Source of the DNA: Patescibacteria group bacterium
GTDB lineage: Bacteria; Patescibacteriota; Minisyncoccia; Phycocordibacterales; PALSA-1337
Reading direction: 5' to 3'
Assembly: GCA_038065415.1 (NCBI GenBank)
Contig: JBBTRA010000005.1
Span: 8,079-72,078, forward strand
DNA length: 64,000 nucleotides
The notes beneath the pieces were generated by a model, which was not told the origin of the DNA, made no database searches, and saw only the letters and a list, made by a program, of their open reading frames with translations. Numbering within the stretch: position 1 is the first letter of the stretch; every line of letters begins with the position of its first letter. Position numbers and translations under genes: made by a program. Of the stretch, positions 2,203-28,353 are shown in pieces.

Positions 2203-2214
2203 GATATTACTTTT

Positions 2215-3195: not shown

Positions 3196-3224
3196 CGATA
3201 CCAGTAAGTATATCCAGAAATAGC

Positions 3225-3773: not shown

Positions 3774-3811
3774 CGTGAATAGTCCATGATCAAGAGAGAA
3801 TAACCAAGTAG

Positions 3812-12000: not shown

Positions 12001-13812
12001 ATGAAACGACGGGCGCGCCCGCAGAATGGCAGACATGGAAGCACCAAGGCGAAGAAACATTCGCAGCGCATATTGAAGCCCCACCACAAATACATATTCG
12101 TCGTCGGAGGTGTCATGTCCGGCGTGGGTAAGGGCGTGGCCACTTCGTCTATCGGTACACTCTTGGCCGCAAAAGGTTGGACGGTCAATCTTGCGAAGGT
12201 AGATCCATATCTCAATGTGGATGCCGGTACTATGAACCCGACCGAGCACGGGGAAGTCTTCGTGCTCGACAATGGTCTCGAGACTGATCAGGACATGGGC
12301 AACTATGAGCGCTTCCTCAACCGCGACCTGACGGGCGATGACTACATCACCAGCGGCATGGTCTACAAGCATGTGATCGAGAAGGAGCGTGCTCTCGGCT
12401 ATGGCGGCAAATGTGTTGAGGCCATACCTCATATCCGCGATGAGATCGTCAGACGTTTTGAACACAGTGCCAAGGTCAACAAATCCGACATCTCTATCAT
12501 CGAGATTGGGGGAACGGTGGGCGACTACCAGAACATCATGTTCATAGAAGCGGCTCGTGTGCTCAAGATCCGTCATCCCAATGATGTGATCTTTATTATG
12601 GTCTCGTATCTACCAGTGCCGGGTACGCTGGGTGAGATGAAGACTCGTCCGACCCAGAATGCCGTGCATCAGTTGGCTTCATATGGCGTGACTGCAGACA
12701 TCATCATCGCCCGTGCAGATATGCCGCTCGATGATCGCCGCAAAGAGAAGATCGCAGTCGCATGCAATCTTCCCGCAAAGAGAGTCATCTCGGCTCCTGA
12801 TATCGAGAGCATCTATGATGTGCCGATCAATTTTGAACGCGACCGTCTCGGTGATATTGTGCTCGAGGCTTTGAATGTGCCGTTCGGCGAGCGCTCGGGT
12901 GCGCTCAAGGATGAACCGCTCATCTCCATGGATGCATGGAAGAAGATGACCAAAGGTATCAAGAACTATGTCGATAAGCCACTCAAGATAGCAATCGTGG
13001 GAAAATATTTTAATACAGGAGATTTCGTGCTGACAGATGCATATATCTCAGTCTTGGAAGCAATCAAATTTTCGGGATATGCGGCACAGGTGAAGCCAAT
13101 CATTCATACTGTCAATGCGAGAGACTTCGAAAAGGGGTCTGTTGGCGATGCTGCATATGCCAAGCTCGACGAGATGGATGGGGTCATCGTTCCGGGTGGA
13201 TTTGGCGAGAGCGGTATCGAAGGTAAGCTCAATGTGATCAGATATTGCCGCGAAAACAAGATACCGTATTTCGGCCTTTGTTATGGTATGCAACTCATGA
13301 CTATCGAGTACGCCCGCAATGTACTTGGGCTCGCCGGTGCACACACAGCGGAAATAGACCCGAAGTCGCCGCATCTCATTATCGATATCATGCCCGATCA
13401 AAAGAAGAAGATTGCTACGGGAGACTACGGGGGCTCGATGCGTCTCGGTTTGTATCCTGCCAAGTTGACCAAAGGATCGGTTGCACAGGAGGCGTATTCA
13501 CAGTTTGCTGGCAAGCCGCTTCCGCGCCCGACGACGGTCATCAGGGAACGACATCGCCATCGCTATGAGGTCAATCCGAAGTATATCGATCGTATCGAAA
13601 AGGGAGGACTCGTATTCTCGGGCAAGTCTCCTGATGGAACCCTCATGGAGATTGCTGAGTTGCCGCGCACAGAACATCCGTTTTTCCTGGGCACCCAGTT
13701 TCACCCAGAATTCCTCGCTCGACCACTCATGCCACATCCGTTGTTCACCGAATTTTTGAAGGCAGCAAAGATAAAAAAGGGGAAGGTGGTTGTTACAGAA
13801 AATATCGGGTAA
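12001..13812 (+). CDS. pyrG: CTP synthase
   Basis: Canonical N-terminal synthetase motifs 'KYIFVVGGVMSGVGKGV…NVDAGTMNPTEHGEVFVLDNGLETDQDMGNYERFL'. C-terminal class-I glutamine amidotransferase domain with catalytic Cys in 'GLCYGMQ' and the GATase 'HPEF' motif. Unusual ~30-aa basic N-terminal extension; a TTG at ~12072 is an alternative start. Confidence 0.9.
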   Translation: MKRRARPQNGRHGSTKAKKHSQRILKPHHKYIFVVGGVMSGVGKGVATSSIGTLLAAKGWTVNLAKVDPYLNVDAGTMNPTEHGEVFVLDNGLETDQDMGNYERFLNRDLTGDDYITSGMVYKHVIEKERALGYGGKCVEAIPHIRDEIVRRFEHSAKVNKSDISIIEIGGTVGDYQNIMFIEAARVLKIRHPNDVIFIMVSYLPVPGTLGEMKTRPTQNAVHQLASYGVTADIIIARADMPLDDRRKEKIAVACNLPAKRVISAPDIESIYDVPINFERDRLGDIVLEALNVPFGERSGALKDEPLISMDAWKKMTKGIKNYVDKPLKIAIVGKYFNTGDFVLTDAYISVLEAIKFSGYAAQVKPIIHTVNARDFEKGSVGDAAYAKLDEMDGVIVPGGFGESGIEGKLNVIRYCRENKIPYFGLCYGMQLMTIEYARNVLGLAGAHTAEIDPKSPHLIIDIMPDQKKKIATGDYGGSMRLGLYPAKLTKGSVAQEAYSQFAGKPLPRPTTVIRERHRHRYEVNPKYIDRIEKGGLVFSGKSPDGTLMEIAELPRTEHPFFLGTQFHPEFLARPLMPHPLFTEFLKAAKIKKGKVVVTENIG

Positions 13813-14765: not shown

Positions 14766-15392
14766 TCAGATATCCTTCCAGAGAAAGACCTCTTTCTTTT
14801 TCTTCACGGCGTCGAGGTGGATATAGCCTTCAGGATTGTACAGCTCTGGGCCGATGACGCAGTGCATCCGGTAACGGTGATATATGTCCGTGAGTCCGAG
14901 GCGCTTGTCTGAAGGCGTGGGTGGCGATGTCTCCCAGGTGCTGCCTTGCCACTTGGAGAGCTCGTAGAGGGAGGTGTCACACCAGTCGAGCTCTTCGCGG
15001 AGGCCGCGCTCTATTGCCGTGCGCCCGTTCTCGATCCGACCGTCCCAATACCTCTGCATGGTCTCGCCGAGAGACCCTTCGAACGGCCTGCTCTTGTAGT
15101 GGACACGTCCTAGGTGCGCACTGTCGAGGTTGAGCTGGTAGGCCTCATAGAGCTCATGCATGCGCTCGTCAATGTATCCGATGTAGGGTACGGCGACCAT
15201 GATGTGGAGCGTGAGGCGGCCATTCTCCCAGTGGAGTGTTACGGCTTCCTCGCGAATCATAGTCAAGAAGTCTTCCAAGGCGCCATTCTCGGTCTGGGGC
15301 CACTTGTGCACGGGTATCCGTGCTTTGACGAGAGCTGCGGGTATGTCTGCGACACCGATTCCGGGTGAACTGACAGGTATCAATATGTCCAT
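14766..15392 (-). CDS. Conserved hypothetical protein (function unknown)
   Basis: Start set at ATG 15392 (MDILIPVSS…). The ORF-track extension to 15593 runs antisense across the tRNA-Gln gene and is rejected. No diagnostic motif was recognised. Confidence 0.45.
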   Translation of the reverse strand: MDILIPVSSPGIGVADIPAALVKARIPVHKWPQTENGALEDFLTMIREEAVTLHWENGRLTLHIMVAVPYIGYIDERMHELYEAYQLNLDSAHLGRVHYKSRPFEGSLGETMQRYWDGRIENGRTAIERGLREELDWCDTSLYELSKWQGSTWETSPPTPSDKRLGLTDIYHRYRMHCVIGPELYNPEGYIHLDAVKKKKEVFLWKDI

Positions 15393-15501
15393 ATGTCGAT
15401 CCTTTGGTTGTGCGTTGTGCCTGCGTTTGCTTGTTTTATACTCTTTTTTGGGGTATTCTGCAAGGTACGCCGTTTCGGGCTTTTTTACATATATAGATAT
15501 T

Positions 15502-15570
15502 GCGGGATCGTCTAATGGTAGGACACAGCTCTCTGAAAGCTGGTATCTTGGTTCGAGTCCAAGTCCCGCA
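15502..15570 (+). tRNA. tRNA-Gln (anticodon CTG)
   Basis: Cloverleaf folded by hand. Acceptor GCGGGAT pairs with GTCCCGC, with discriminator A. D-arm TCT/GGA. Anticodon stem CAGCT/AGCTG with loop CTCTGAA, giving anticodon CUG. T-arm CTTGG-TTCGAGT-CCAAG. No CCA is encoded. Confidence 0.8.
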
Positions 15571-15993
15571 GCACGTAGACAAAGTTCGAACATGAACTAG
15601 GCATGCCCACATGCTGCAGTCACTCAGAATCGAATCTATTTAGATACTTTTCTGGTCTTTATCCTCTCATTCATTCTCATCATTTTGGCTATGTACGTCA
15701 CCTTGCGGTATATCGCTCCAAGCCCTTTCATCATGGCTTCTATTTGGCTCATGATCTCTATTGGAGATGCGTCGCTGGGAATGTAAGACATCGTTTGTGT
15801 TGTTTACCCGCTCGCAGTTCGACTAGCTCTGCGAGCACAGCTCGTGCGGTGATATGGGCTGTGCGGGAGATAGTGTATTCTGTAGAAGAGGGGGATGGTA
15901 GACGGGTAGATTTGCCGGGAGTGGTAAGTTCACGAGTCTATGTACTTTCAGGAAAATAGGGTATAGAATCATCACTATTCACCAACCTCTAAA

Positions 15994-16887
15994 ATGATTC
16001 AATTTGCAACGAGTACAATAAATGCAATGGATTTGATTACACTCTCACAAAGTATTGCACAGCTTAATTTAGGCTATCTTGGAATATCGGTAGCTATTCT
16101 GGGTGTACTGGGCGGAGTGTTTGTTTATTTTAATATAAGACCTTTAAAAGAAACTCTGGAGAAGCAAGAAAAGAAGATTGAAGAATTAAAGAAAGAAGCA
16201 CAGGGTCTGTTAAAACAGTCTTTAGAACAATCCTCAGTAACCTTGGAAGCTTTTAAAAAACAACAGGTTGAACTGCTCTCGACAAGATTTAAACAGCAAG
16301 AACAAAATATTGCTCTTGAAACTACAAATAAGATTCAAGACTTGGAAAAAATACTTTTGATAACGATTGACAATGTGTCTGAAACTAAAGACACGAAACT
16401 AAGAGAGATTATATTGTCTAAGACCAATAACTTAATATCAGAAAAAGAGAAGGATTTAATAATGCAGATTACTAATACACGAGAATCTGTAACTAAGGAA
16501 ATTTCGCAAACCAACACAAGTATTGCGAGTTTGAGGGCACATTTTAAACAAGTTCACGAAAGAGTTAAGGAACTACAAGTTTATAAGTATAGCAAGGAAG
16601 GAAAAATGGGTGCCGTAATTTTTTCAACCGAGCTGCTCAAAGATGCAATCGACGATTATTTTAACTTGAGAAAGACCACGCCTTCTGTTGATAAGAATTT
16701 AGGTGGTTGGAAGATAGAGTTGAGATTAGATGAATTGTTGAAGGAAATTGGAGACAATATAATGGAGGGGGAATATGCGTCAGAAATCCTCGCTCAACTT
16801 GATAGGCTTATGAATGAAAAAATATTTGCGGATAAAATTGAAAATATCAGGAAGATGTGTAAGCTGGAAAAACATCCACGGCTGTAA
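15994..16887 (+). CDS. Membrane-anchored coiled-coil protein (island gene)
   Basis: N-terminal TM helix 'LGYLGISVAILGVLGGVFVYF', then about 250 aa of K/E/Q/L-rich heptad-like sequence. AT-rich codon usage differs from the flanking genes. Confidence 0.45.
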   Translation: MIQFATSTINAMDLITLSQSIAQLNLGYLGISVAILGVLGGVFVYFNIRPLKETLEKQEKKIEELKKEAQGLLKQSLEQSSVTLEAFKKQQVELLSTRFKQQEQNIALETTNKIQDLEKILLITIDNVSETKDTKLREIILSKTNNLISEKEKDLIMQITNTRESVTKEISQTNTSIASLRAHFKQVHERVKELQVYKYSKEGKMGAVIFSTELLKDAIDDYFNLRKTTPSVDKNLGGWKIELRLDELLKEIGDNIMEGEYASEILAQLDRLMNEKIFADKIENIRKMCKLEKHPRL

Positions 16888-16978
16888 ATTAAATCGCGTA
16901 GATGGTTAAACGAGAAGGTCCTGAAATATGGCCATTACTGTCTTAACTTTAAAACCCCTTCATTACTCGCGGCTCACC

Positions 16979-17416
16979 TCACTTTTTCCAATTGATTCCC
17001 GTGATGATAATAGAAGCCAGAACAATGAGTGGAACAGAAAGCATAAGTATAAAGGAAACAATAGTTGAACCGCCCCAGAAGTAAACTTGCCATCCAGAGA
17101 GGGTATTGTTCTGGGTTGAGAGTGCTGCAAGGGTGAGAGGGATAATGTAGGAAGCAATTCCGATGACGACCCAAGTATTGGTGAATTTTAGTGCACGTTC
17201 ACTCAGTTTATCTCCCAATATGGCAAAGAAAATATAGTCGACAACATAAGCAACAACGATAATACAACCCGATAGTGAAATATTCTGGTTGATGGATAGG
17301 GCCAGAAATAGAACGAGAATGGTGATCGTAAACTGAAGTCGAGTCTCAATCCTATCTATAAGCCTATCCTTACTTACTGTCATGTTGGTGATCTGGCTTA
17401 AAGAGAGTAGCTTCAA
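16979..17416 (-). CDS. Small polytopic membrane protein (island gene)
   Basis: Four predicted TM helices. The real start may be the internal ATG at 17383 (MTVSKD…). Confidence 0.4.
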   Translation of the reverse strand: MKLLSLSQITNMTVSKDRLIDRIETRLQFTITILVLFLALSINQNISLSGCIIVVAYVVDYIFFAILGDKLSERALKFTNTWVVIGIASYIIPLTLAALSTQNNTLSGWQVYFWGGSTIVSFILMLSVPLIVLASIIITGINWKK

Positions 17417-17537
17417 TCTCTGGATGTTTCTCGGCCATGCGGATAGCCTCCTTTACGGCATTAATATTGCGCTGACCTCGGGTCTTTCCAGGCATCTTTG
17501 TTGCGTCTACTACATTGTATATTACCCTCGGCTTCAT
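17370..17537 (-). CDS. Possible small protein (55 aa), unannotated
   Basis: ATG…TAA ORF 'MKPRVIYNVVDATKMPGKTRGQRNINAVKEAIRMAEKHPEIEATLFKPDHQHDSK', with GGAAG 12 nt upstream. It lies below the 60-aa track cut-off and its stop overlaps the start of the next minus-strand gene. Confidence 0.25.
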   Translation of the reverse strand: MKPRVIYNVVDATKMPGKTRGQRNINAVKEAIRMAEKHPEIEATLFKPDHQHDSK

Positions 17538-17776
17538 GCGCCTATTTTACTTCCTATGCGAAATAGTTGCCACTCCTGGCAAATCCACCCCTCTTCACTC
17601 AGTTCCACATATCATCGATACTACCGGAATGATATAACAGGAACCAATCAGACAAGGTGAAGGAAGGGGACATACAGACGCTTCGAAAGAAGTGGTAGAT
17701 TGCTCTTATCAATTTATCATTTGTATTGTATAATGTTCGAACGTCGTCCTTATAACCCAGCCAACTTGAGATAGGT

Positions 17777-18367
17777 TTGGAGTCCGAGAAGCATATTATG
17801 GACAGCGATATATATAAACAACAAATAGATTTCTACACTCTTGAGTTAGAGAAGATTGGGAAAATCCTTTCGGATCAGACTGCTGGAACAGGCACCTTGC
17901 TTACAATTGTCGGTCTCTTGTCTTTTCTCCCTCAGCTACTGATTACAAATAATGAATACATCTCATACTTTTTACTTTGGACATTTTGGATTCTAATAAT
18001 AGCTATTGCTACTTACTGGCCAGCTTCTCTCAGAGTTTCCTCAATTGTAAAAGGACACCCTTTTGCTAGCACTGGTTCATCATTGGAAATTGAAATTCTA
18101 AAAAACAGAAATGACTATTTTGATATAGTTTGGAAAAAGTCTGTTGAGAATCATGATGCTGTCCTATTTTGGAATAGTGTGAGTAAGTCCTTGCTGTATG
18201 CGTATTTATTCTCGCTCGTATCGAACTTTTATGTGTTCGTTTTCCATGGAACTCCAGATTTTTGTACTTCGTTGACACTACTCACAATCTCTGTAATTAT
18301 TGCTTTGCTTCTTTTTTGGATACCGCGAATGAAGTCACAGAAAGGTAGAGTTATAGGTGATAAATAA
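17777..18367 (+). CDS. Polytopic membrane protein (island gene)
   Basis: At least four hydrophobic helices. No recognisable domain. It is 114 nt upstream of the AlbA_2-like gene. Confidence 0.4.
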   Translation: MESEKHIMDSDIYKQQIDFYTLELEKIGKILSDQTAGTGTLLTIVGLLSFLPQLLITNNEYISYFLLWTFWILIIAIATYWPASLRVSSIVKGHPFASTGSSLEIEILKNRNDYFDIVWKKSVENHDAVLFWNSVSKSLLYAYLFSLVSNFYVFVFHGTPDFCTSLTLLTISVIIALLLFWIPRMKSQKGRVIGDK

Positions 18368-18481
18368 TCCATTCCGAGGAGCATCAAAGTGCTATAATTA
18401 GTTTCATCAAAATAACCTTGTGGGGTAAGGCATAGAAATGTCCGAATCCGATGAGGTCAGCACTTAAATTAAGTTATTACT

Positions 18482-19447
18482 ATGTCCCAAAGTTCGCAAA
18501 AAATTTATGAGAATTTACGTAGTATAGATGATGTTAATAGATTAATTGTAGAAAAAACAACAGAGGGATTGTATTTAGAATTCAAAGAAAAAAGTAATAA
18601 ATCACAACCAGATCTGAGTAACTCTGATAAAGAGAATTTTAGTGAAGCGTTATCTCAGTTTGCAAACTCAGACGGTGGAGTTTTAATTTTTGGAGTTAAA
18701 ACATCTAAGCCAAATGATTATGCTTCAGAATTATCTCCCATAATAAATCCGAAGGAGTTTCTTCATAGACTTTTAGATTTCGCATTGTATGCTGTACAAC
18801 CAAGTGTTGATGAGTTAGAAGGGAAAGTAATTGATAATGACGACAAGTCCGGATTTGTCATATTTCTGATACCTGCTAGTCTGAAGACTCCACATCGATC
18901 ACTTGTTACTAGGGAGTATCTTAAAAGAGGTCAAAATGGTAAATATAAAATGGAACATTTTGACCTTGAGGATATGTTCGGTAGAAGACAAAAACCATCT
19001 TTGTCTATCGAATTAATACCAGTTACTAAAAAGAAGTTATCACTTTTACATGAAGATAAAAGTGTAATTGGGTATTTAGGGTCACTTGAATATGATATTT
19101 TTATTCATAACGATGGTAGAGCTGTTGCAAAAAACTCACTTCTCATACTAACCTCGTCCAGTGATAAACTTGCAAAGTTCGAGGTAGTCCCTACACATGG
19201 TTCAGGTGCTGTTGTATCTAATATTTCAACCATTCGATTAGGGACGCCCACAGTTCAAATCTCTCTTGTAAATTCAATCTTTTACCCTACTGTAGCTGGA
19301 AGAATAGCAACACTTAAACTGAGAATAAGTATTTCTGATTTTGATTCTATGAATAATGTCCCAATTTCGTGGGCTGTGTATGCTGAAGATATGGCAAGTA
19401 AAATAGGTGTTGTTAATGTTGAATTCAAAAATCAAATCGAATTCTAA
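18482..19447 (+). CDS. AlbA_2 / Schlafen-like (divergent AAA-4 'putative DNA-binding') domain protein with an unknown beta-rich C-terminal domain
   Basis: The N-terminal ~130 aa carry the family hallmark 'TTEGLYLEFKEKS…' (E-x-x-x-L-E-F-K) followed by 'DGGVLIFGV'. The C-terminal 190 aa have no recognisable motif. Confidence 0.5.
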   Translation: MSQSSQKIYENLRSIDDVNRLIVEKTTEGLYLEFKEKSNKSQPDLSNSDKENFSEALSQFANSDGGVLIFGVKTSKPNDYASELSPIINPKEFLHRLLDFALYAVQPSVDELEGKVIDNDDKSGFVIFLIPASLKTPHRSLVTREYLKRGQNGKYKMEHFDLEDMFGRRQKPSLSIELIPVTKKKLSLLHEDKSVIGYLGSLEYDIFIHNDGRAVAKNSLLILTSSSDKLAKFEVVPTHGSGAVVSNISTIRLGTPTVQISLVNSIFYPTVAGRIATLKLRISISDFDSMNNVPISWAVYAEDMASKIGVVNVEFKNQIEF

Positions 19448-19729
19448 TGATATACTTACCTTATAAATCCCTGAATGCGGAAAGTGTAAGGACTTTGAAA
19501 TACAGATAAATTTTCCTTACCAGTTTCCTTCTTTTTTGCGTTAAGGTTCTTACGTCGTCTAAGTCCTGCAGTAGTCATGGTCGGTGGTCATCAGACCACG
19601 ACACATCAAGTAAACAAAGGATATTTTGGAAGCGCTAAATTAGTGTCCTAGACGGGTCATTTCGCGTTCTATATTTTAGGCCACGAAATCGATTCGAATC
19701 TCAGAGGGTTTTTCGCTATACTTATACCT

Positions 19730-20101
19730 ATGAAGCCTCCAAGTGAAGCAACACTCAAGCGCGTATACGGGTACATCTTTGCCAAGGTATATCCGATGTA
19801 TATCGCTAAGGCAGAGAAGAAAGGTCGAACCAAAGAAGAAGTCGACGAGGTCATTCGCTGGCTCACGGGATACACTCAAAGCAAGCTGAATGCGCAGATC
19901 AAGGAAGAGGTGAACTTCGAGATGTTCTTCAATGAGGCGCCCAAGCTCAACCCTTCGCGCAAGCTCATTACCGGCATGATCTGTGGTGTTCGGGTGGAAG
20001 AGATTGAAGACAAAATCATGCGCGAGGTTCGGTATCTCGATAAGTTGGTTGACGAGCTCGCTAAGGGAAGACCGATGGAGAAAGTTCTGCGTAAGTCATA
20101 A
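19730..20101 (+). CDS. DUF2200-like conserved hypothetical protein
   Basis: '[30 protein letters not shown]' matches my memory of the DUF2200 family consensus. This was not verified by a search. Confidence 0.45.
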
Positions 20102-20112
20102 TACCTACATAT

Positions 20113-20883
20113 ATGCACGAATTCCTCCTATTTGGTCTCAAGCAAGCCCGCGCGGCCATATTTGCCGGCTCTTTCTTTTTGCTACTTTTCCTTTCGAACT
20201 ACATCCCGCTCTTCGGTTTGGCTCGGTATGACTTCTTGTTCATTGCTGCGGTGTTGATCCAGGCAATTTTGTACTTCACGAAGCTGGAGACCAAAGATGA
20301 GGTGAAGGTTATTTTCTTATTCCATATCATCGGCCTTATCCTCGAATTGTACAAAACAAGTCCAGGTGTTGGTTCCTGGAGCTATCCCGAGGATGCGTTT
20401 TTCAAGATCATGACCGTGCCTCTCTACAGTGGTTTTATGTATGCGGCAGTCGGGAGTTACATCAGTCAGTCTTGGAAAATTTTGAAACAGTATGTTACCA
20501 ACTACAACCACTATGGATGGAGTGTCGTGCTCGCCGCACTCATCTACCTCAATTTTTTCACCAATCATTACATATATGACTTCAGGATATTCCTGATCAT
20601 TGCAGTCTTTGCGCTCTTTTGGAAGACAAGGATATATTTCACAGTCATGACCAAGGTTCGTTGGATGCACTTGAATACAGGATTCCTCCTAGTCGCTTTT
20701 TTCATCTGGATAGCGGAGAATATATCGACATATCTCGGTGCATGGCAGTATCCAGATCAGATTCATGTGTGGAGTGTTGTTTCTACGAGCAAGATAACTT
20801 CGTGGTTCCTGATGGTTATTATCAGCTTTATTTTGGTTGCATATCTGAAGCATTTTAAAAAAGATGTGTTGAAGAAGTCGTAG
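20113..20883 (+). CDS. Integral membrane protein (DUF817-like?)
   Basis: Seven or eight predicted TM helices. The family assignment is from memory only. Confidence 0.45.
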   Translation: MHEFLLFGLKQARAAIFAGSFFLLLFLSNYIPLFGLARYDFLFIAAVLIQAILYFTKLETKDEVKVIFLFHIIGLILELYKTSPGVGSWSYPEDAFFKIMTVPLYSGFMYAAVGSYISQSWKILKQYVTNYNHYGWSVVLAALIYLNFFTNHYIYDFRIFLIIAVFALFWKTRIYFTVMTKVRWMHLNTGFLLVAFFIWIAENISTYLGAWQYPDQIHVWSVVSTSKITSWFLMVIISFILVAYLKHFKKDVLKKS

Positions 20884-20981
20884 ATATATATGACTATTGA
20901 AGCTATACTTTATACACACGGGAACTTGACCAAAAACTCCGCTTTGTATATAGTGTAATTATCACACTAATTAAATATATT

Positions 20982-21680
20982 ATGGCGTATACCAAAGTGA
21001 AAAGACTATTAGGAACCAAGAAGGAACATATCGAACAATTAAAGGTGGGAGTGATTATGTTTGCAGCCACTACGGTATACGTCCTTCTGTCAAAATACTT
21101 CGTTCCCAATTATAGTTTGAATGTATTTGAGTTTATTGGGACCTGGGCGGGTCTTATATGCGTATGGCTTTCACGCACAAGGAACATTCTTTGCTGGCCA
21201 TGGGGAATAGTCAGTTCACTTGCGCTCGGAGTATTTTTTAGTCAGATTGGTTTACCTGGCCAACAGTGGCTCAATTGGGGCTATTTCGTAATAATCCAAT
21301 TATGGGCTTGGCCGCATTGGGCATTTGGTGGAAAAGAGGATACCGAACTTCCTGTCACCGTGTTATCGTGGAAAGGAAGAATCCTGACTTTGGTATTCAT
21401 GGTCTTGGGGACCGTACTAGCATATTCCCTTATTGATGTTTTCGTTCCAGGTTCTTTGTACCCGTGGCTAGATGCTTTGGTTGTAACTTCGAGCGTGATT
21501 GCCCAGTTTCTTCTAGGAAGAAAGAAAGTCGAAAGCTGGATACTTTGGCTTGGTCCGGTGAACTTGGTCTCGATCGCCCTATTCTTCTTAGCAGGTGCTT
21601 ATACGCTTACCGCCTTGTATGTCGCCTTCTTTATTCATGCCGCTTTTGCTCTTACTACGTGGACTAAAGTTAATAAATAA
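20982..21680 (+). CDS. pnuC: Nicotinamide riboside transporter PnuC
   Basis: 7-TM protein with the PnuC signature Trp-rich helices (…CWPWGIVSSL…, …WAWPHWAFGGK…). It is followed directly by nadR. Confidence 0.75.
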   Translation: MAYTKVKRLLGTKKEHIEQLKVGVIMFAATTVYVLLSKYFVPNYSLNVFEFIGTWAGLICVWLSRTRNILCWPWGIVSSLALGVFFSQIGLPGQQWLNWGYFVIIQLWAWPHWAFGGKEDTELPVTVLSWKGRILTLVFMVLGTVLAYSLIDVFVPGSLYPWLDALVVTSSVIAQFLLGRKKVESWILWLGPVNLVSIALFFLAGAYTLTALYVAFFIHAAFALTTWTKVNK

Positions 21681-21688
21681 GCAAGTAT

Positions 21689-22678
21689 ATGTTTCATCGA
21701 GGAATTGTTATTGGAAAATTCTACCCGCCTCATCGAGGCCATAAGTATTTAATTGATACGGCTCGCTCGCAGTGTGAACAGCTTACCGTAATTGTCTGTT
21801 GGAAAAAATCACAATTTATCTCTGGAGTAGAGCGGGCTCGTTGGATCCAAGAAATTCATCCTGACGTTCAGGTAAAACTTCTTGATGACGATCGTCTCGC
21901 AGATGATGACTCAGAAGGGTGGGCAAAAAACACGTTGGATGTGTTGGGATTTACGCCTGATGCTGTATTTACATCTGAATCATACGGCGATCCATATGCG
22001 TCTTTTATGGGATGTGTCCATGTGTTGGTTGATAAGGCGCGTACGTATATTCCTATCTCGGCAACAATAGTACGAAGCGATCCTACGAAATATGCACAAT
22101 TTCTCGAACCGTGTGTTCGAGCATCGTTTGCTCGACGTGTATGCATTCTGGGTGCAGAATCCACAGGTACTACGACCTTATCCAAGGATCTTGCAAAACA
22201 CTATAAGACAACATGGGTGCCTGAATATGGGCGTTTGTATTCAGAAGGAAAGATGTTTGGCGATGAAAATGCCGCATGGCGAACGGATGAATTCATCAAA
22301 ATAGCAAAAGCTCAAGGTATTCTTGAAGATGCCTTGGCAGAAGCATCAAATGGTTTGGTCATTTGTGATACGGATGCATTTGCCACCGGAGTTTGGCATG
22401 AAAGATATCTAGGTAAACGATCGGCTCAAGTTGAAGCCATTGCTGCCCGAAGAAAATATGACCTGTATATCTTAACGGGGGATGAAATTCCTTTTGAGCA
22501 AGACGGAACAAGGGATGGAGAACATATTCGTCATGATATGCAAAAACGATTTGTTGAACGTCTTACTGAAGATGCAAAGAATTATATTATCGTATCAGGA
22601 AACAGGGAGGAACGTTTGCAAAAGGCCATAGCGGCTATTGATGCTATACAGCCAATGGTCGTGGATAATGCCAAATAA
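21689..22678 (+). CDS. nadR: NadR-type bifunctional NMN adenylyltransferase / ribosylnicotinamide kinase (no HTH domain)
   Basis: N-terminal nucleotidyltransferase motif 'GKFYPPHRGHKYLI' (HxGH). C-terminal P-loop 'LGAESTGTTTLSKDLA' in the NRK position. The P-loop lysine is replaced by Thr. Confidence 0.75.
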   Translation: MFHRGIVIGKFYPPHRGHKYLIDTARSQCEQLTVIVCWKKSQFISGVERARWIQEIHPDVQVKLLDDDRLADDDSEGWAKNTLDVLGFTPDAVFTSESYGDPYASFMGCVHVLVDKARTYIPISATIVRSDPTKYAQFLEPCVRASFARRVCILGAESTGTTTLSKDLAKHYKTTWVPEYGRLYSEGKMFGDENAAWRTDEFIKIAKAQGILEDALAEASNGLVICDTDAFATGVWHERYLGKRSAQVEAIAARRKYDLYILTGDEIPFEQDGTRDGEHIRHDMQKRFVERLTEDAKNYIIVSGNREERLQKAIAAIDAIQPMVVDNAK

Positions 22679-22779
22679 TCAAAGAGAAACCTTCGCCTTG
22701 TACTCTTCCGAAATTGTTTTATACTGGATATATATGACGATCTTCCATTCAAAATATAAGCTCATACATCATACATACC

Positions 22780-23571
22780 ATGAATAAAATAATCCTTGTT
22801 ATAGCCATCCTCGCTCTCGTTGCTGGTGGCATATATTACACATCGGACCGTCCTGGCACCATGACCAACGTCGACATGCTCGACACGGGTGATAAGACCC
22901 CACTCATCGTGGAGACTGATGTTGCATACTTCCTAGGAGCAAAAGGATATTTTGTTCGCCCTGCAACAGAAGCCGTCTATCCGGGCGTGGTCATGATCCA
23001 TGAGAACCGTGGTCTCCGACCTGAGACGCGCGCTGCAGCTGATCAGCTCGCTCGCGAAGGGTACATGGTACTCGCCGTCGATCTCCTCGGGGGAATTGGT
23101 GAGACGCAGGAAGAAGCTCGTGCACTGACATCAAAATTCAAGCAGGCAACAGGTACCGCCAATATGCGTGCCGCCGCCGCGTATCTCAAATCCAAAGGTG
23201 CGCCGAAGATTGCTAGTCTCGGCTGGTGTTTTGGGGGCAGACAGTCTATAGAGCTCGCGATTTCCGGAGAGAAGCTCGATGCGACGATCGTCTATTATGG
23301 AGGTGGTATGGCGACGACCACAGAACGGCTCGCCCCGATCTCATGGCCAGTGCTCGGCATCTTCGGCGAGGCAGATCAGGCGATCAGTACGACCACGGTG
23401 CGTGTATTTGAGACATCGCTCAATACTCTTGGAGTCGAAAATCAGATCTACATATATCCAGGAGTCGGTCACGCCTTCGCCAATCCGTCAGGCATGAATT
23501 ATGCACCAGAGGAAACAAAGGATGCCTGGGCGAAGACGGTCGCATTCCTTGAGAGACATCTCAAACAGTAA
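22780..23571 (+). CDS. Dienelactone hydrolase family protein
   Basis: Nucleophile elbow 'GWCFGG' with Cys. C-terminal 'GVGHAF' with His. N-terminal membrane anchor. Typical size. Confidence 0.75.
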   Translation: MNKIILVIAILALVAGGIYYTSDRPGTMTNVDMLDTGDKTPLIVETDVAYFLGAKGYFVRPATEAVYPGVVMIHENRGLRPETRAAADQLAREGYMVLAVDLLGGIGETQEEARALTSKFKQATGTANMRAAAAYLKSKGAPKIASLGWCFGGRQSIELAISGEKLDATIVYYGGGMATTTERLAPISWPVLGIFGEADQAISTTTVRVFETSLNTLGVENQIYIYPGVGHAFANPSGMNYAPEETKDAWAKTVAFLERHLKQ

Positions 23572-23582
23572 CCCGGGATTTT

Positions 23583-24479
23583 TTGTTGCAATATGATATA
23601 GTAACGCATCATATGCAACCATCGGATTATATCGTCATATTGTTCTATAGCTTCCGGCAGATCGCAGATCCTCGTGCGGTCGCTGAGGCGCATCGGCAGA
23701 AATGTACGGAGCTCGGTCTGAGAGGGCGCATGATCGTGGCAGAAGAAGGCGTCAATGCAACCTTCGAGGGTACACGCGAAGCTATCGAAGCATACAAAGC
23801 ATTTGCTCTGGCTGATCCTGTGCTTACGGGTATTGCTATCAAGGAGAGCGCTGGTACAGGTTTTGCTTTTCCACGTCTCACAATCAAAGTGCGCGACGAG
23901 ATTGTGACTCTGGGGGCTGGCAGATTCGATGTGGCTCGGGAGACTGCAACTCAGTTGCCGGCGTCTGAATTGCAAAAATGGTATGAGAATGGAGAAGATT
24001 TCGTGGTGCTCGATCTGCGCAATAGCTATGAGATCGCCAGTGGGAAGTTCGATAAGACGGTTGATCCGGGACTCTCCAATTTTAGAGATCTACCTGCGAA
24101 GGTGAAAGAACTGTCTCAACTCAAAGACAAAAAAGTAGTGACGGTCTGCACGGGTGGTATTCGCTGTGAAAAAGCGACTTGTCTCCTCAAGAAAGAGGGA
24201 TTTTCTGATATCTATCAGCTCAAGGATGGTATTCATACCTATATGCAGGAATATCCCGGAGCGCATTTCAAGGGAACGCTCTTCGTTTTTGATAACCGCA
24301 TGACAACAGACGTGGTTCCGGTGCACGGCAAAGAAATCATTGGTTCGTGCTCATTCTGTGGAACAGCTACGGAGAACTATTGTGCCGATGACAGTGTCCG
24401 TCCGTCACGCAAAGTTCTGTGCTGTGCATCTTGTGAAGTTGTTCAAGGTGCTACTCTTCGCGGCATGGCTCAGCGTTGA
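23583..24479 (+). CDS. Rhodanese-domain protein of the UPF0176 / TrhO (YceA) tRNA U34 hydroxylase family
   Basis: N-terminal UPF0176 region 'ILFYSFRQIADPRAVAEAHRQ…RGRMIVAEEGVNATFEG'. Rhodanese active-site loop 'CTGGIRCEK'. C-terminal Cys cluster 'CSFCG…CC'. The likely start is ATG 23613. Confidence 0.7.
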   Translation: MLQYDIVTHHMQPSDYIVILFYSFRQIADPRAVAEAHRQKCTELGLRGRMIVAEEGVNATFEGTREAIEAYKAFALADPVLTGIAIKESAGTGFAFPRLTIKVRDEIVTLGAGRFDVARETATQLPASELQKWYENGEDFVVLDLRNSYEIASGKFDKTVDPGLSNFRDLPAKVKELSQLKDKKVVTVCTGGIRCEKATCLLKKEGFSDIYQLKDGIHTYMQEYPGAHFKGTLFVFDNRMTTDVVPVHGKEIIGSCSFCGTATENYCADDSVRPSRKVLCCASCEVVQGATLRGMAQR

Positions 24480-25117
24480 TCGAGCATCTCTTTCAGTACA
24501 GGTTCAATTTTGTCGGCTATGAGGGCGTAGCCGGCGCTATTCGGATGAATCGCATCTGACATGTAACGACTGTCACCAATCAGTCCATCGAGGACATTTG
24601 GCACAAAGCCGACTCGATGTTCTTCCGCGAATTCCTCGAAACGTTCATTGTATGTATCCCTGAGGAGGCCGCCGCGGACGCCCAGAAGGAGCACAGCTGC
24701 ACCACTTTCGTGGATTCGCTGTATGATCGTGCCGAGATTTTCGAAGGTCGTATCTATGGGGACGCGTTTGAGATAATCATTGCCACCGAGCAGGATGATG
24801 ACAAGGCGGGGGTCTTCGTCGAGCACGCTCTGTAGGCGAGAGAGCGCGGCTTCTGTCGTGTCTCCGCTGACTCCGAGGTTCACTATGGGTTGGCCGATGC
24901 GATCGGAGAGTAGGGAAAAGATGTCACGCCCTGCGGTCGATCCGACTCCTTGGACGAGACTATCGCCGAAGGCAACGATGGTTGTTCCGGAGGAATCAAG
25001 ATTGCGAATGTCTGGTCCTGAAAGCCATGACCAAGAAAGATATCCAGCCACGCCGATCAGGATGATTCCGAGAAGTAGTGTGCGGTTATTTTTGTTCATC
25101 GTCTTCGAGTTTCTCAA
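24470..25117 (-). CDS. SGNH/GDSL hydrolase (arylesterase/lipase-like), secreted or membrane-anchored
   Basis: Block I 'IVAFGDSLVQG', block III 'LLGGNDYL' and block V 'DAIHPNSAG'. N-terminal hydrophobic helix. Confidence 0.7.
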   Translation of the reverse strand: MRNSKTMNKNNRTLLLGIILIGVAGYLSWSWLSGPDIRNLDSSGTTIVAFGDSLVQGVGSTAGRDIFSLLSDRIGQPIVNLGVSGDTTEAALSRLQSVLDEDPRLVIILLGGNDYLKRVPIDTTFENLGTIIQRIHESGAAVLLLGVRGGLLRDTYNERFEEFAEEHRVGFVPNVLDGLIGDSRYMSDAIHPNSAGYALIADKIEPVLKEMLDQR

Positions 25118-26393
25118 GCCTCTTGCGATCAGTGATGAGTCGCCAGATAGCGCTCACGTGCCGCGCGATATGGTGGCCGAAGAAATAATGTAGTACGAAT
25201 CCTGCCATCATAAGGATAAGCAGGGTCAGCAGGAGTGCGACTGCGTGGTCGCGGATGAACTTGGTAGGAAGAAAGGGAAGACTCACGTCGATAGAGGCGT
25301 CACGCACGTTACCGGCCTTGTCAAAAGCACGGACGATGAGTCGGGAATGGTCGATGGATTCGAAGGGAACCTGATATGGACTCTCGCTTCTCACGAAAAC
25401 GGGTGACTCGGTGGCGGGTTTGGATTTGTCGATGAGACCTACCTCATAGCGATCGAGTCCGGAGAGGGCATCGGTTGTGAAGAAGGAGATCAGGGCTCGA
25501 CTGATGACGGCTGCAGTGATGTAGTTGATGCGTGGTTCAAAATCTGCCGGAGGTGCAGTGTCGATCTTGAGGGCGAAGTCCGTGGATGCACCCCATACGC
25601 CGTTTTTCAAAGCCTTGATATGGAAATACCACGCACCGTCAGGTTGTTCTTGATATGAGCGTGCAGTGCTCTCGGTGTCGACCGTATTGTCTGGTATTGT
25701 GTTGGGCTTGTCATCGAGGATCATGCTGTATCCGCTCACACCGGGTTCAGGGGTCCATGCGAGCGAGATTGTCGGGTTGTTGTACCAGTGGTCACGAAGG
25801 GGATGAGTTTCGGAGAAGACGACTACTCCTCCAGGAGGTCGGGATACAATAGTATAGACAGCACGGTTGGCGGTGTGATTTGCAGGGGATCCGACACCAT
25901 CATTGAGGAGTATGCGCGTGTCGTCCTGTATTCTGACAGAAGCTGGGCCGGCACTCTTTGCTTGGAACGTGATGTTGGCGAGTAATCCTGATTCCGTGGT
26001 GATGCCGTTGGGAATGCCTCCAACGAGGGTGATGGTGCCGCGTGCATTGTCATAGCTAGGTGCTTCGATCCATAGACCGATCACCGATGAGCCCCCTGAG
26101 GGTTTGACTACAGAAAGTGTTTCCGCATCGAATCGTATGCGGAGTTCTATCGCGCCAATGCTGCTACCTTTTGTGTTGATGTATATCGGAACCTCAAAAG
26201 TTGATCCTTGTGTGAATGTTCCCGACGGTGGGCTGATCAGTATCTCAGTTTTTGGTATGAGATCGGGTCCGCTCAAGTTCACGGTCGATTGGGCATGAAC
26301 TTGAATTCTGCTACTAGCTATGATGGCGAGCGCGATGAGAATACAGGAGAAGGTGGCGCGGAGAGCCTTCGTTGGGACGTGATGGGTATGCAT
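25086..26393 (-). CDS. Cohesin-domain protein, C-terminally membrane-anchored (third paralog)
   Basis: Signal peptide. 'ILISPPSGTFTQGSTFEVPIYINTKGSSIGAIELRIRFDAETLSVVKPSGGSSVIGLWIEAPSYDNARGTITLVGGIPNG…ANITFQAKSAGPASV' parallels the 9616 and 10496 proteins. C-terminal TM 'ALLLTLLILMMAGFVLHYFF'. Confidence 0.55.
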   Translation of the reverse strand: MHTHHVPTKALRATFSCILIALAIIASSRIQVHAQSTVNLSGPDLIPKTEILISPPSGTFTQGSTFEVPIYINTKGSSIGAIELRIRFDAETLSVVKPSGGSSVIGLWIEAPSYDNARGTITLVGGIPNGITTESGLLANITFQAKSAGPASVRIQDDTRILLNDGVGSPANHTANRAVYTIVSRPPGGVVVFSETHPLRDHWYNNPTISLAWTPEPGVSGYSMILDDKPNTIPDNTVDTESTARSYQEQPDGAWYFHIKALKNGVWGASTDFALKIDTAPPADFEPRINYITAAVISRALISFFTTDALSGLDRYEVGLIDKSKPATESPVFVRSESPYQVPFESIDHSRLIVRAFDKAGNVRDASIDVSLPFLPTKFIRDHAVALLLTLLILMMAGFVLHYFFGHHIARHVSAIWRLITDRKRLEKLEDDEQK

Positions 26394-26401
26394 GGGTATG
26401 G

Positions 26402-26842
26402 TTAGCGCTTCATCGGATGCATGTGTGCGGCGATACCGATGGCTGCGGCGATGATGAGGATATTCTTGATGATGTACTGACCCTCAAGTGTTGGGATGAG
26501 GAATCCTGACCAGGTTGCGGCTGGAATGACGAAAAGTGGCATGATGGTCGTGATCATGTGCAAGAAGAGGAGAGGGATGACGACACGCTCGGTTCCACGA
26601 ATCAAGAAAAGGATGCCGATTACGCATTCGAAGAGGCCGAAAAGCACGATGAATGTGCTGAACGGCATGAATGATATTGTATGACTGAAAAGCTCTTCGA
26701 CCAGTGGGCTGGCCGGCGACATGCCGATGACTTTGAGGATGCCAAACCAGAAAAAGACAGTGAAGAGGCCGATACGAGCGATGGGAACGCTCAGTTTCCT
26801 GAATACGTGAATGAGCTCGAGGTCAATGGTGCGGAGAGACAT
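26402..26842 (-). CDS. DoxX-family membrane protein
   Basis: Four TM helices. Size and hydropathy pattern typical of DoxX/DUF417. Confidence 0.5.
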   Translation of the reverse strand: MSLRTIDLELIHVFRKLSVPIARIGLFTVFFWFGILKVIGMSPASPLVEELFSHTISFMPFSTFIVLFGLFECVIGILFLIRGTERVVIPLLFLHMITTIMPLFVIPAATWSGFLIPTLEGQYIIKNILIIAAAIGIAAHMHPMKR

Positions 26843-27130
26843 GGATGAATTATATCATGTTTCTTTTGTGTGGTGCTGTGAGTGTGGGCTGGGCTGACTG
26901 AAGAGAAATAAGGGCGAAACAAAGAAATGGTAAATGGGGAGAGGTGCTGAAAACCTCAGGTACAGCAAACGCGAAAGATTTGCATTTGGAACTTAGAAAA
27001 GATAGGATGATCGATAGGTAAACGCGAAAGATTATCGTTTTAGGTACCCTCTGAAAAGGACATACTGCTTCCCCTTAGGTTGTCGCGCTTTATGCACTCG
27101 TGATTAGAAACAAACATTATCTACAAAACC

Positions 27131-27589
27131 ATGAATAGAAAAAAGATAGAAGAACCCGAGATATATGGAACGGAAGCCCAGCACCTTCTTTGGTCTGTAC
27201 ACCTCAAGGCCACGCCCGGAAGAGTTGCGCTTCTCGATCTCTTGAATGAGGAGAAACACCCTGTCTCCATCGCTCACCTAGAGAGTCGGCTCAGAAAAAT
27301 CTCTGCGGGTCTTGCCGCTGCGAGCATATATCGAGCCCTCGATTCTCTTGTGTCGGTTGGCTTGGTCAATCGCATAGATACGGGTACGATTCATGCCACC
27401 TATGAGATCAGGGTTGGTCGTCGCCATCATCATCACTTGATCTGCATGGGTTGTGGAGATATAGAAGATTCTGAAAAGTGTCTTCCGAAAGGGATCGAAC
27501 ACACTGTTCTGGCTGATTCGAAAAAGTTCGCGTCACTTTCACGCCATTCCCTGGAGTTCTTCGGTACTTGTATCAAATGCGCTAAATAA
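27131..27589 (+). CDS. Fur-family metalloregulator, probably Zur
   Basis: Winged-HTH N-terminus. Metal-site motifs 'HHHHLICMGCG' and 'CIKC'. Immediately upstream of a ZIP transporter gene. Confidence 0.75.
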   Translation: MNRKKIEEPEIYGTEAQHLLWSVHLKATPGRVALLDLLNEEKHPVSIAHLESRLRKISAGLAAASIYRALDSLVSVGLVNRIDTGTIHATYEIRVGRRHHHHLICMGCGDIEDSEKCLPKGIEHTVLADSKKFASLSRHSLEFFGTCIKCAK

Positions 27590-27624
27590 AACAGACAGTA
27601 ATCTATTATAGTAAGTACATCATT

Positions 27625-28353
27625 ATGACCATATTTATTTCCATCCTCGCTTCGCTCGCAGCTTTCGCTGGTGGCCTCATAGCACTCCGTTTTAGAGACA
27701 AATTGCATATTATCCTAGGCCTCTCTGCCGGAGCAGTGATCGGCGCAGCTCTCTTCGATCTCATTCCCGAGGCAATAGAGCTCGGATCAGCAGTTTTCCA
27801 TCCCGAAGAATTGACAGCGTTCACGGCAGTTGGATTCTTGACCTACTTGATCCTCGATAGAGTTTTTTCATTCCATGCGCACGGCCACAGTGATGAACAA
27901 GATACTGATCATACCCCTGTGCGCGGCTCGCTCGGTGCTGCTAGCTTCTGTTTGCACAGTTTGATCGACGGTATCGCGATCGGTCTAGCTTTTCAGGCGT
28001 CTGCAGCAGTAGGACTTATCGTCGGTATCGCTGTGCTTGCTCACCGTTTCTCTGACGGGATCAATACTGTCGGTGTCATACTTAAGCATCGTGGTAATGA
28101 TCGTCGAGCATGGGCATGGCTTACTGCTGTAGCAGCAGCACCTATTGTGGGCACCGTATCGACATTCGCGTTTTCTGTGGCAGACCATACACTGGCCGTC
28201 ATCCTCGCCGTGTTCGCTGGATTTTTCCTCTATATCGGAGCCAGCGATCTCATTCCTGAGGGTCACCACAGTCATTCCAAAGCCCTGACGACGGTCATGA
28301 CCATACTCGGCGCGGTTCTGCTCTATCTCATCGTGCATCTTGCGCACGCCTGA
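27625..28353 (+). CDS. ZIP-family zinc transporter (ZupT-like)
   Basis: Eight TM helices. Metal-binding motifs 'HSLIDGIAIGLAF' and 'HRFSDGINTV'. His-rich loop 'HAHGHSDEQDTDH'. Confidence 0.75.
   Translation: MTIFISILASLAAFAGGLIALRFRDKLHIILGLSAGAVIGAALFDLIPEAIELGSAVFHPEELTAFTAVGFLTYLILDRVFSFHAHGHSDEQDTDHTPVRGSLGAASFCLHSLIDGIAIGLAFQASAAVGLIVGIAVLAHRFSDGINTVGVILKHRGNDRRAWAWLTAVAAAPIVGTVSTFAFSVADHTLAVILAVFAGFFLYIGASDLIPEGHHSHSKALTTVMTILGAVLLYLIVHLAHA

Follow-up and report, generated by a model that had tools for sequence, protein, structure and literature searches.

Here, we describe a 4.0-kb genomic island beside a tRNA-Gln gene of a Patescibacteria bacterium and consider it likely that this island is the integrase-less remnant of two insertions, that it carries a single-polypeptide defence protein of the pSlfn5 type, a prokaryotic Schlafen (pSlfn), and that the membrane proteins encoded with it are co-resident cargo. 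The island lies in a stretch of 64,000 nucleotides (nt), hereafter the window, from a 141-kb contig of a metagenome-assembled genome (MAG) from Hainich groundwater (ENA ERZ1292624), and the protein in question is 321 amino acids (aa) long. Prokaryotic Schlafens have been shown to act against phages, as effectors joined to sensors of various kinds (Perez Taboada et al., Nat Microbiol 2026, PMC13056530; preprint PMC12330615), and RorSlfn5 of Raoultella ornithinolytica, with its conserved nuclease and variable sensor, detects the tail assembly chaperone of T5 and cuts tRNAs in the anticodon arm (PMC13056530). An earlier note, made from the DNA letters alone, had proposed a candidate novel module of several genes in which a Schlafen-like domain senses nucleic acids and small membrane proteins act as effectors. 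This candidate is here reclassified as a member of the recently described defence class, and the 189-aa and 297-aa membrane proteins, each of a conserved family that travels in the same hotspots, are set apart from it.

A Schlafen nuclease domain fused to an immunoglobulin-like domain

The 321-aa protein matches the PF04326 SLFN_AlbA_2 profile over residues 28-157 with E = 7.6e-7 and 30.1 bits, the alignment covering profile positions 1-117 of 118, and the AlbA_2/Schlafen assignment of the earlier note is borne out by a hidden Markov model score above the gathering cut-off (25.3). Its motif E28-GLYL-E33-F-K35 fits the Ex4(E/D)xK catalytic motif of Schlafens. All 88 homologues compared have E at position 28 and K at position 35, and at position 33 either E (77 sequences) or D (11), a conservation of the triad that argues for enzymatic function. 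The earlier note took this domain for a nucleic-acid sensor. Schlafen domains of characterised proteins, bacterial and human, instead serve as the effector and cleave tRNA; the Ex4(E/D)xK motif of this nuclease is invariant here.

A total of 162 homologues (E <= 0.001), mostly of 290-330 aa and matched along most of their length, were found in Patescibacteria, in other phyla and on plasmids of the Bacillus cereus group. Nearly all of those listed carry a precomputed PF04326 match, and the plasmid collection gave no match in Enterobacterales. A profile of the 88 homologues matches the solved structures of SLFN8, 12, 5, 14 and 11 as well as, weakly, CbCash (E = 0.054).

In the AlphaFold2 model of the 321-aa protein (predicted local distance difference test, pLDDT, 95.5; predicted template modelling score, pTM, 0.83) residues 1-170 are alpha/beta and residues 174-321 all-beta. 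The modelled N-terminal domain has the fold of a Schlafen nuclease lobe, and a Foldseek search with the C-terminal beta-sandwich gave the ectodomains of integrin alpha chains as top matches. The C-terminal domain of RorSlfn5 likewise best matches integrin ectodomains (PMC13056530). The C-terminal half, once thought unassignable, is thus predicted to be an immunoglobulin (Ig)-like beta-sandwich, as is the sensor module of the pSlfn5 class, and the combination that had not been recognised is one described in 2025-26 for single-gene defence proteins that join a Schlafen and an Ig-like domain (PMC12330615, PMC13056530). The two domains differ in conservation, the mean identity to homologues being 46% for the N-terminal and 19% for the C-terminal domain. 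Searched alone, the latter found 12 proteins among 1.84 billion representatives, namely seven full-length known family members, three short proteins (78-162 aa, maybe fragments) and two longer ones with weak repeated matches.

Judged on sequence and model, the 321-aa protein reproduces every testable architectural feature of pSlfn5. Its architecture is that of the published pSlfn5, an anti-phage tRNase of one gene with an Ig-like sensor of phage protein. A defence role is plausible by analogy, and the earlier note's suggestion of such a role holds at that grade.

An occupied tRNA-Gln site with an empty counterpart

The closest relatives of the window genome, judged by pyrG, are MAGs of the Paceibacterota/Taylorbacteria type. 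Scanning genome contigs with the 275-aa protein encoded upstream of the tRNA gave no relatives; pyrG then served as the query, and 80 loci were fetched with it as anchor. At least 28 of these loci have a tRNA-Gln gene downstream of pyrG. In one of them (L012; pyrG 82% identical) the tRNA-Gln, at 13181-13252, is identical to that of the window and the DUF2200 gene starts at 13335, only 83 bp later, so that the site is empty. The DUF2200 protein of the window, whose gene lies beyond the island, is 83% identical to the L012 copy. DNA homology to L012 is detectable by blastn from 19693, and GTCATTTCG at 19657-19665, read by eye, is common to both, which suggests that the ancestral flank resumes near 19655 (Table 1).

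In the closest relative (L011; pyrG 87% identical) a different insert occupies the site, with genes for a transmembrane (TM) protein, Fic/DOC, a YtxH-like protein and a glyoxalase, followed by DUF817. The insert includes a 1.9-kb cassette (L011 13629-15512) that encodes a 224-aa TM protein and Fic/DOC and has the left end in common with the window and a homologous attachment site (att), attR, GTCTAAGTCCGGCAGCA.

The junctions of the window island carry the mark of tRNA-directed integration. The tRNA-Gln(CTG) gene is the sole tRNA gene of the window, and an Rfam scan of the island gave nothing beyond this tRNA. Its terminal sequence GTCCAAGTCCCGCAGCA has a counterpart in the same orientation at a distance of exactly 4000 bp, at the distal GC boundary, namely GTCTAAGTCCTGCAGTA (19557-19573; 14/17 identical). 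With at most three mismatches allowed on both strands, this is the sole other match in the window (0.12 expected), and MAFFT independently aligns the segment with the tRNA ends of L012 and L034. The degenerate direct repeat of the tRNA 3' end that the earlier note proposed looking for thus exists. The distal site, attR2, is homologous over about 45 nt to the attR of L011 and has the same derived changes; in L011 the equivalent tRNA-end repeat lies 1.9 kb from its tRNA. Such repeats occur also in L023, L033 and L068 and were not found in the flanks available for L005, L009, L091, L096, L097 and L099.

Base composition tells a similar story. Positions 15574-19573 have a G+C content of 37.5% against 50.7% in the rest of the window (z = -6.6; baseline from 4-kb windows outside 15.5-22.8 kb, mean 51.3%, standard deviation 2.1, minimum 45.9). 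The low-GC island described earlier is real; its edges are less sharp than was claimed. With 45.7% GC in the first ~420 bp 3' of the tRNA (15574-15993), the steep drop does not adjoin the tRNA and begins only at about 15.9-16.0 kb. Recovery is only partial at 19.6 kb, with 42.8% at 19574-22800, and full at about 22.8 kb. A second, milder dip is present near the start of the window (2001-4000; 43.4% against about 51%). Taken together, the empty site in a relative, the tRNA-end direct repeats and the deviant GC confirm that the tRNA-Gln island was acquired horizontally.

The same tRNA flank is used in many relatives. In no fewer than seven further relatives the gene of a large serine recombinase (Resolvase, Recombinase and Zn_ribbon_recom domains) adjoins or overlaps the tRNA-Gln 3' end and reads in the opposite direction, the recombinases of L016, L021, L023, L024, L043, L065 and L066 (440-517 aa) standing at position 0 to -2 after the tRNA, and L015 and L053 likewise have a large serine recombinase at tRNA-Gln. 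The cargo behind these recombinases differs from relative to relative, and the 3' flank of tRNA-Gln is therefore a lineage-wide integration hotspot.

The region from tRNA-Gln to the Fur-Zip gene pair (window 19574-28353 included) is plastic as a whole, spanning ~12 kb in the window, 6.7 kb in L011 and 2.9 kb in L012. Of these two relatives only L012 has DUF2200 and only L011 has DUF817. The PnuC and NadR genes (~43% GC) were found in neither, and they may for this reason be a further, older acquisition.

Two probably stacked modules without a recombinase

No integrase was found by Pfam and NCBIfam scans of the listed open reading frames (ORFs) of the island, including the 118-aa and 51-aa ORFs of the left end, and no part of the window was matched below E = 0.07 in a tblastn search with nine serine recombinases of relatives. 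With neither a recombinase domain nor a remnant of one, the island is a degraded or non-autonomous remnant, in keeping with the earlier suggestion of an old or degraded insertion. Scans of viral contigs returned only distant matches to the Schlafen N-terminal domain and no homologues of the membrane proteins; a prophage origin is therefore not indicated.

The island falls into two parts. Module A (15574-17730) holds the 297-aa, 145-aa and 55-aa genes, and module B (17763-19541) the 189-aa and 321-aa genes. What separates them is attR1, where the element-arm motif TAATGTTCGAACGTCGTC precedes a decayed copy of the 3' end of tRNA-Gln. The arm motif GTTCNNNCGTCGTC occurs in the window only at 17735 and 19546 (0.00 expected) and is present at the L011 attR too; the arm of the att-like sites is also written TAAKGTTCNNNCGTCGTC. 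Because this motif is shared with the 19546 site and the L011 attR, 17731-17762 is read as a second, more decayed attR. In L091 and L096, attR1 and the next 30 nt align with a genuine tRNA-Gln 3' end and its downstream sequence (alignment A6). On this sequence evidence attR1 is the putative boundary between the two modules.

Both ends of module A are conserved. Its left end (15574-15930) has 81-88% DNA identity to L011 13629-13930, directly after the L011 tRNA-Gln, and is absent from L012. Within it a minus-strand ORF survives as a 51-aa remnant (15636-15791), its upstream part cut off by an in-frame stop; the L011 homologue is intact, at 83 aa. A 118-aa plus-strand ORF (15603-15959), which shares sequence with the conserved left end and matches no family, was not accepted as a gene. 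The right end is 73.7% identical over 137 nt to L013 16649-16784, 1.05 kb downstream of the L013 tRNA-Gln, and the alignment of 17562-17765 with L013 (~1.05-1.27 kb after its tRNA) runs through the att-like site. A 28-nt inverted repeat, one arm in each conserved end, brackets the three module A genes. By our estimate such a repeat has a chance expectation of ~1e-3 for the region, no target-site duplication is evident, and the arms could be candidate sites for recombinase binding or regulation. A scan for promoters and terminators gave results at chance level.

Tandem accretion of two related integrative elements would be the simplest reading of this anatomy. Module B may have integrated first at the 3' end of tRNA-Gln(CTG), and module A later into the regenerated tRNA, which would have pushed attR1 and module B outward towards attR2.

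Table 1. Features of the tRNA-Gln island and its flanks, in window coordinates
Feature	Position	Strand	Description
tRNA-Gln(CTG)	15501-15572	+	ARAGORN; Rfam tRNA 60.3 bits
attL core	15557-15573	+	tRNA-Gln 3' end GTCCAAGTCCCGCAGCA, last 17 nt; integration target
Conserved left-end segment of module A	15574-15930	.	45.7% GC; holds decayed minus-strand ORF
Inverted-repeat left arm, 28 nt	15900-15927	.	Partner 17567-17594; 24/28 complementary
297-aa protein	15994-16887	+	N-terminal TM ~24-49; long coiled-coil/apolipoprotein-like helical region
145-aa ORF	16979-17416	-	~4 TM; called as 134 aa in source record
55-aa soluble basic protein	17370-17537	-	Upstream of and overlapping the 145-aa gene; no TM
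Conserved non-coding right end of module A	17562-17730	.	Contains right inverted-repeat arm 17567-17594
attR1, putative decayed tRNA-Gln 3'-end copy	17731-17762	+	Element-arm motif TAATGTTCGAACGTCGTC precedes tRNA-like part
196-aa ORF (189 aa from ATG 17798)	17777-18367	+	Four-helix, 4-TM membrane protein
321-aa prokaryotic Schlafen protein	18482-19447	+	PF04326; soluble, no TM
Slfn/AlbA_2 nuclease domain, residues 1-170	18482-18991	+	321-aa protein
Catalytic motif E28-x4-E33-x-K35	18563-18586	+	321-aa protein
C-terminal Ig-like beta-sandwich, residues 174-321	19001-19444	+	321-aa protein
attR2, distal island boundary	19542-19573	+	TAAGGTTCTTACGTCGTC then TAAGTCCTGCAGTA; includes 14/17 repeat
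Resumed ancestral flank	19655-20101	+	DUF2200 upstream region and DUF2200 gene (19730-20101); comparison with L012

The membrane proteins and the question of a partner

The ORF list and a simple hydropathy assignment of TM segments agree with the earlier description of the island genes as encoding a TM coiled-coil protein, two polytopic membrane proteins and the 321-aa protein. Scans of the island proteins with PADLOC, NCBIfam and PHROGs gave nothing significant. The family of the 297-aa protein is restricted to Patescibacteria (69 homologues, 32-57% identity), and among 59 members 19 match DUF948 and 24 match ATP-synt_B, a weak similarity. The protein itself has no PADLOC or PHROG assignment and no significant Pfam match, and its best sequence match in the PDB is apolipoprotein A-I (E = 0.004). 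The 189-aa family is narrow and highly conserved (37 homologues, 56-88% identity), and the three homologues that carry an organism name all come from Patescibacteria. Its AlphaFold2 model (pLDDT 82) shows four long helices, for which a fold search found no match better than E = 0.3, and there is no Pfam or PDB profile match; the best PADLOC score in the island is its insignificant match to a '2TM effector' model (E = 0.018). Neither the 145-aa ORF (Pfam, PADLOC, NCBIfam and PHROGs scans) nor the 55-aa protein (NCBIfam and PHROGs) has a significant family match.

None of the 297-, 145-, 55- and 196-aa proteins was found by tblastn in L004-L010, seven loci with five distinct Schlafen homologues, or in 80 metagenome loci. 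These Schlafen loci have no neighbouring gene in common. Among ~30 homologue loci with usable flanks a membrane-protein gene accompanies the Schlafen gene only in the window and in L099. The latter is a tRNA-Gln(TTG) island (L099 2635-9544) with T5orf172/MUG113, DpnI, a 290-aa gene of the 297-aa family, a 315-aa SLFN_AlbA_2 gene and AbiEii, in which the 297-family gene (52% identical) ends 56 bp before the Schlafen gene (29% identical to that of the window).

Conversely, both membrane families occur apart from Schlafen genes. In L091 and L096 a gene of the 189-aa family (88% and 61% identical) directly follows tRNA-Gln, and in L092-L095 it follows by 3 nt the gene of an 817-aa protein with an NPPY methyltransferase motif. 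In L094 (3545-6570), for example, the homologue is 72% identical and the motif of the 817-aa protein reads ENPPY (N6/N4 methyltransferase); the genes close by in L092-L095 include an AAA_14/DUF4143 ATPase, an N6_N4 methyltransferase and an rve transposase. A 297-family gene directly follows tRNA-Gln(TTG) in L097 and stands in a non-tRNA context in L181, both without a Schlafen gene. The 297-aa family is thus found together with a Schlafen gene in two of four contexts, which is suggestive only, with the shared hotspot as a confounder.

The membrane proteins had been proposed as partners of the Schlafen protein, and among the ~30 loci compared no such partnership is conserved: beyond its restriction to the window and L099, the decayed att site separates the 297-, 145- and 55-aa genes from the 189-aa and Schlafen genes. 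For a sensor with a TM effector as in CBASS, Pycsar or Thoeris-type or SLATT-like systems, no recognisable family was seen among the island proteins and the pairing is not conserved.

Genomic contexts of the Schlafen homologues

Several Schlafen homologues adjoin a serine recombinase or Rep, methylases, DpnI or AbiEii. One homologue directly follows a tRNA-Glu (L009) and another stands among methylases and a serine recombinase (L007). In L005 (3174-6966) a tRNA-Gln(CTG) is followed by a large serine recombinase, a Rep protein (REP_ORF2-G2P/RepSA-like) and then a homologue with both the Schlafen and the Ig-like domain (43% identical); judged by its gene order this locus looks like an intact element and suggests an integrative rolling-circle-type replicon as the vehicle. 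PADLOC applied to 148 neighbouring ORFs from 20 homologue loci returned mad2 (7), mad8 (4) and many methyltransferase models (4 each), which fits a defence-island habit.

Other homologues are found between GAPDH and housekeeping genes (L004) and between ribonucleotide reductase and FKBP (L010). The earlier note had held that the same genes in a non-island context would speak against its reading, and this was found for the Schlafen gene alone (e.g. L004).

Immediately upstream of the island, a 275-aa ORF as called (14766-15593, minus strand) overlaps tRNA-Gln on the opposite strand. A 208-aa version that begins at an internal Met (15392) matches relatives by tblastn across most of its length, and the internal Met is for this reason the likelier start. 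The protein evolves fast, with 26-34% identity even between genomes whose pyrG is 72-87% identical.

Function of the 321-aa protein and alternative readings

From the analogy with RorSlfn5 we infer for the 321-aa protein nuclease activity, a tRNA substrate, a phage-protein trigger and a defence phenotype. Binding of a phage structural or assembly protein to the Ig-like domain would release the nuclease; the released nuclease would cut tRNA anticodon arms, with shutdown of translation and a collapse of the phage yield as the consequence. In an independent study, a Schlafen from Enterococcus was found to give abortive infection (PMC13552941).

Several points weigh against the reading of the island as a two-insertion remnant with a self-sufficient pSlfn5-type protein. 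Large serine recombinases like those of the neighbours normally leave no 17-bp repeat. The PADLOC models (2023) gave no match to the 321-aa protein. Some close homologues stand among housekeeping genes (L004, L010), and the adjacency in L099, the only case beyond the window that links the 297-aa family with a Schlafen, may reflect a functional link. With 321 aa and ~36 kDa the protein is smaller than RorSlfn5 (43.1 kDa), and the Ig-like domains of the two are likened by architecture and a described fold match. The Schlafens of Patescibacteria, the 321-aa protein included, are known from sequence and models. Of the pSlfn constructs tested, 2/7 protected E. coli, and known defence genes are absent from the vicinity of 30.4% of pSlfn genes (PMC13056530).

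It is very unlikely, in our judgement, that the island encodes one multi-gene abortive-infection system, with the Schlafen protein as nucleic-acid sensor and the 189/196-aa, the 145-aa and possibly the 297-aa proteins as membrane-disrupting effectors. Gene order offers it some encouragement: the 189-aa gene precedes the Schlafen gene by 114 bp, in the same orientation and in the same module B, the 297-family gene of L099 ends 56 bp before the Schlafen gene inside a DpnI/AbiEii/T5orf172 island, the 189-aa homologue of L092-L095 lies 3 nt behind the 817-aa protein with the NPPY methyltransferase motif, and the 189-aa protein has the weak '2TM effector' match (E = 0.018). However, attR1 sits between the 297/145/55-aa genes and the 189-aa and Schlafen genes, tblastn found no membrane-protein homologues in L004-L010 or the 80 metagenome loci, and both families do without a Schlafen gene elsewhere (189-aa homologues in L091, L096 and L092-L095; 297-family in L097 and L181). 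The 189-aa protein lacks a fold or profile match to known effectors, the Schlafen domain is itself the effector in all characterised cases, and pSlfn5 works as one gene. Because the contexts of the homologues are unrelated and most are without membrane proteins, a sensor with membrane effectors spread over several genes is not supported. It is also distinctly unlikely that the 321-aa protein is a nucleic-acid-binding or regulatory AlbA_2 protein and passive island cargo rather than an immune nuclease. Annotations of its homologues as 'ATP-binding protein', 'putative DNA-binding domain' or 'HTH transcriptional regulator' (helix-turn-helix, HTH) point that way, as do the homologues among housekeeping genes and the 30.4% of pSlfn genes away from defence genes, for which the authors allow non-immune roles. 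Yet the protein consists of the Schlafen domain and the beta-sandwich only and has neither an HTH nor an ATPase domain, all 88 homologues keep the Ex4(E/D)xK triad, evolution is much faster in the C-terminal than in the N-terminal domain, as expected of a sensor in an arms race, and the gene recurs in mobile or defence-type neighbourhoods.

Two further readings concern the island rather than the protein. Low GC could be a compositional effect of AT-rich membrane and hypothetical genes in a vertically inherited variable region, and the ordinary genes of the adjacent 19.6-22.8 kb (DUF817, PnuC, NadR) are indeed low as well (42.8%), with another dip to 43% at 2-4 kb. This is highly improbable and, given the empty site and the att repeats, effectively refuted: L012 is empty, L011 has other cargo between the same conserved ends, tRNA-end direct repeats lie exactly at the boundary of a region with z = -6.6, and homologues of three cargo genes stand beside tRNA-Gln (one beside tRNA-Glu) in distant Patescibacteria. 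We also think it unlikely, though worth stating, that the island belongs to a set of Patescibacteria tRNA-Gln cassettes with conserved ends (~350 bp, ~200 bp, inverted-repeat arms) and no recombinase of their own that are moved in trans by the large serine recombinases found at this site in relatives and shuffle a gene pool including undescribed defence or accessory proteins of the 189-aa and 297-aa families, the 297-aa protein possibly being a membrane-anchored partner of Schlafen-Ig proteins, as the gene order in L099 suggests.

To our knowledge very little is known from experiment about the immunity and the phages of Patescibacteria. The present analysis would place in these ultra-small episymbiotic bacteria a putative Schlafen-type tRNase defence gene whose active site is intact and whose predicted Ig-like sensor is private and evolves fast. 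The tRNA-Gln hotspot with its stacked, decaying cassettes indicates how a small, flexible set of genes is maintained in a streamlined genome. Our literature search gave nothing specific on tRNA islands of Patescibacteria, and the residual novelty is the tRNA-Gln cassette system of this group together with the two membrane-protein families.

Comparison with known systems

The 321-aa protein and RorSlfn5 (pSlfn5) are each one polypeptide with an N-terminal PF04326 domain bearing Ex4(E/D)xK and a C-terminal Ig-like, integrin-like beta-sandwich. Both combine a conserved nuclease with a variable C-terminal domain and lie in mobile or variable regions. No obligatory partner gene belongs to pSlfn5, and none is apparent for the 321-aa protein in the loci compared, with L099 as the one case that might point to a partner. 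They differ in host, that of the window being a Patescibacteria bacterium, and in the motif positions, E28/E33 in place of E15/D20 of RorSlfn5. In contrast, the human and other mammalian proteins SLFN11, 13, 14, 5 and 12 have two lobes, a linker and a helicase, where the 321-aa protein has a single lobe and a beta-sandwich. Closer in size is Cash (CbCash, PDB 9ylu; PMC13462974), a bacterial Schlafen tRNase of ~300 aa and an immune effector, for which the profile match is the weak one given above. However, Cash is fused to a Csx15 Rossmann-like sensor of cyclic tetra-adenylate (cA4) and depends on type III clustered regularly interspaced short palindromic repeats (CRISPR), whereas the 321-aa protein has the Ig-like beta-sandwich; none of the annotated genes within ~10 kb of its gene is a CRISPR gene.

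The 297-aa protein resembles proteins of the DUF948/YtxH type in its one N-terminal TM helix and long amphipathic helices and differs from them in an extra, unassigned C-terminal region of ~100 aa. The island as a whole is best compared with the tycheposons of Prochlorococcus, in which successive tRNA integrations leave partial tRNAs between elements as well as decayed remnants (bioRxiv 10.1101/2020.12.28.424599). Common to the two are a streamlined genome, integration at tRNA 3' ends, older elements pushed outward, integrase-less remnants and defence cargo. The present case differs in phylum, in the tRNA-Gln target and in the large serine type of the recombinases of its neighbours, and the window island, known here from its sequence, is without a replication module or an integrase.

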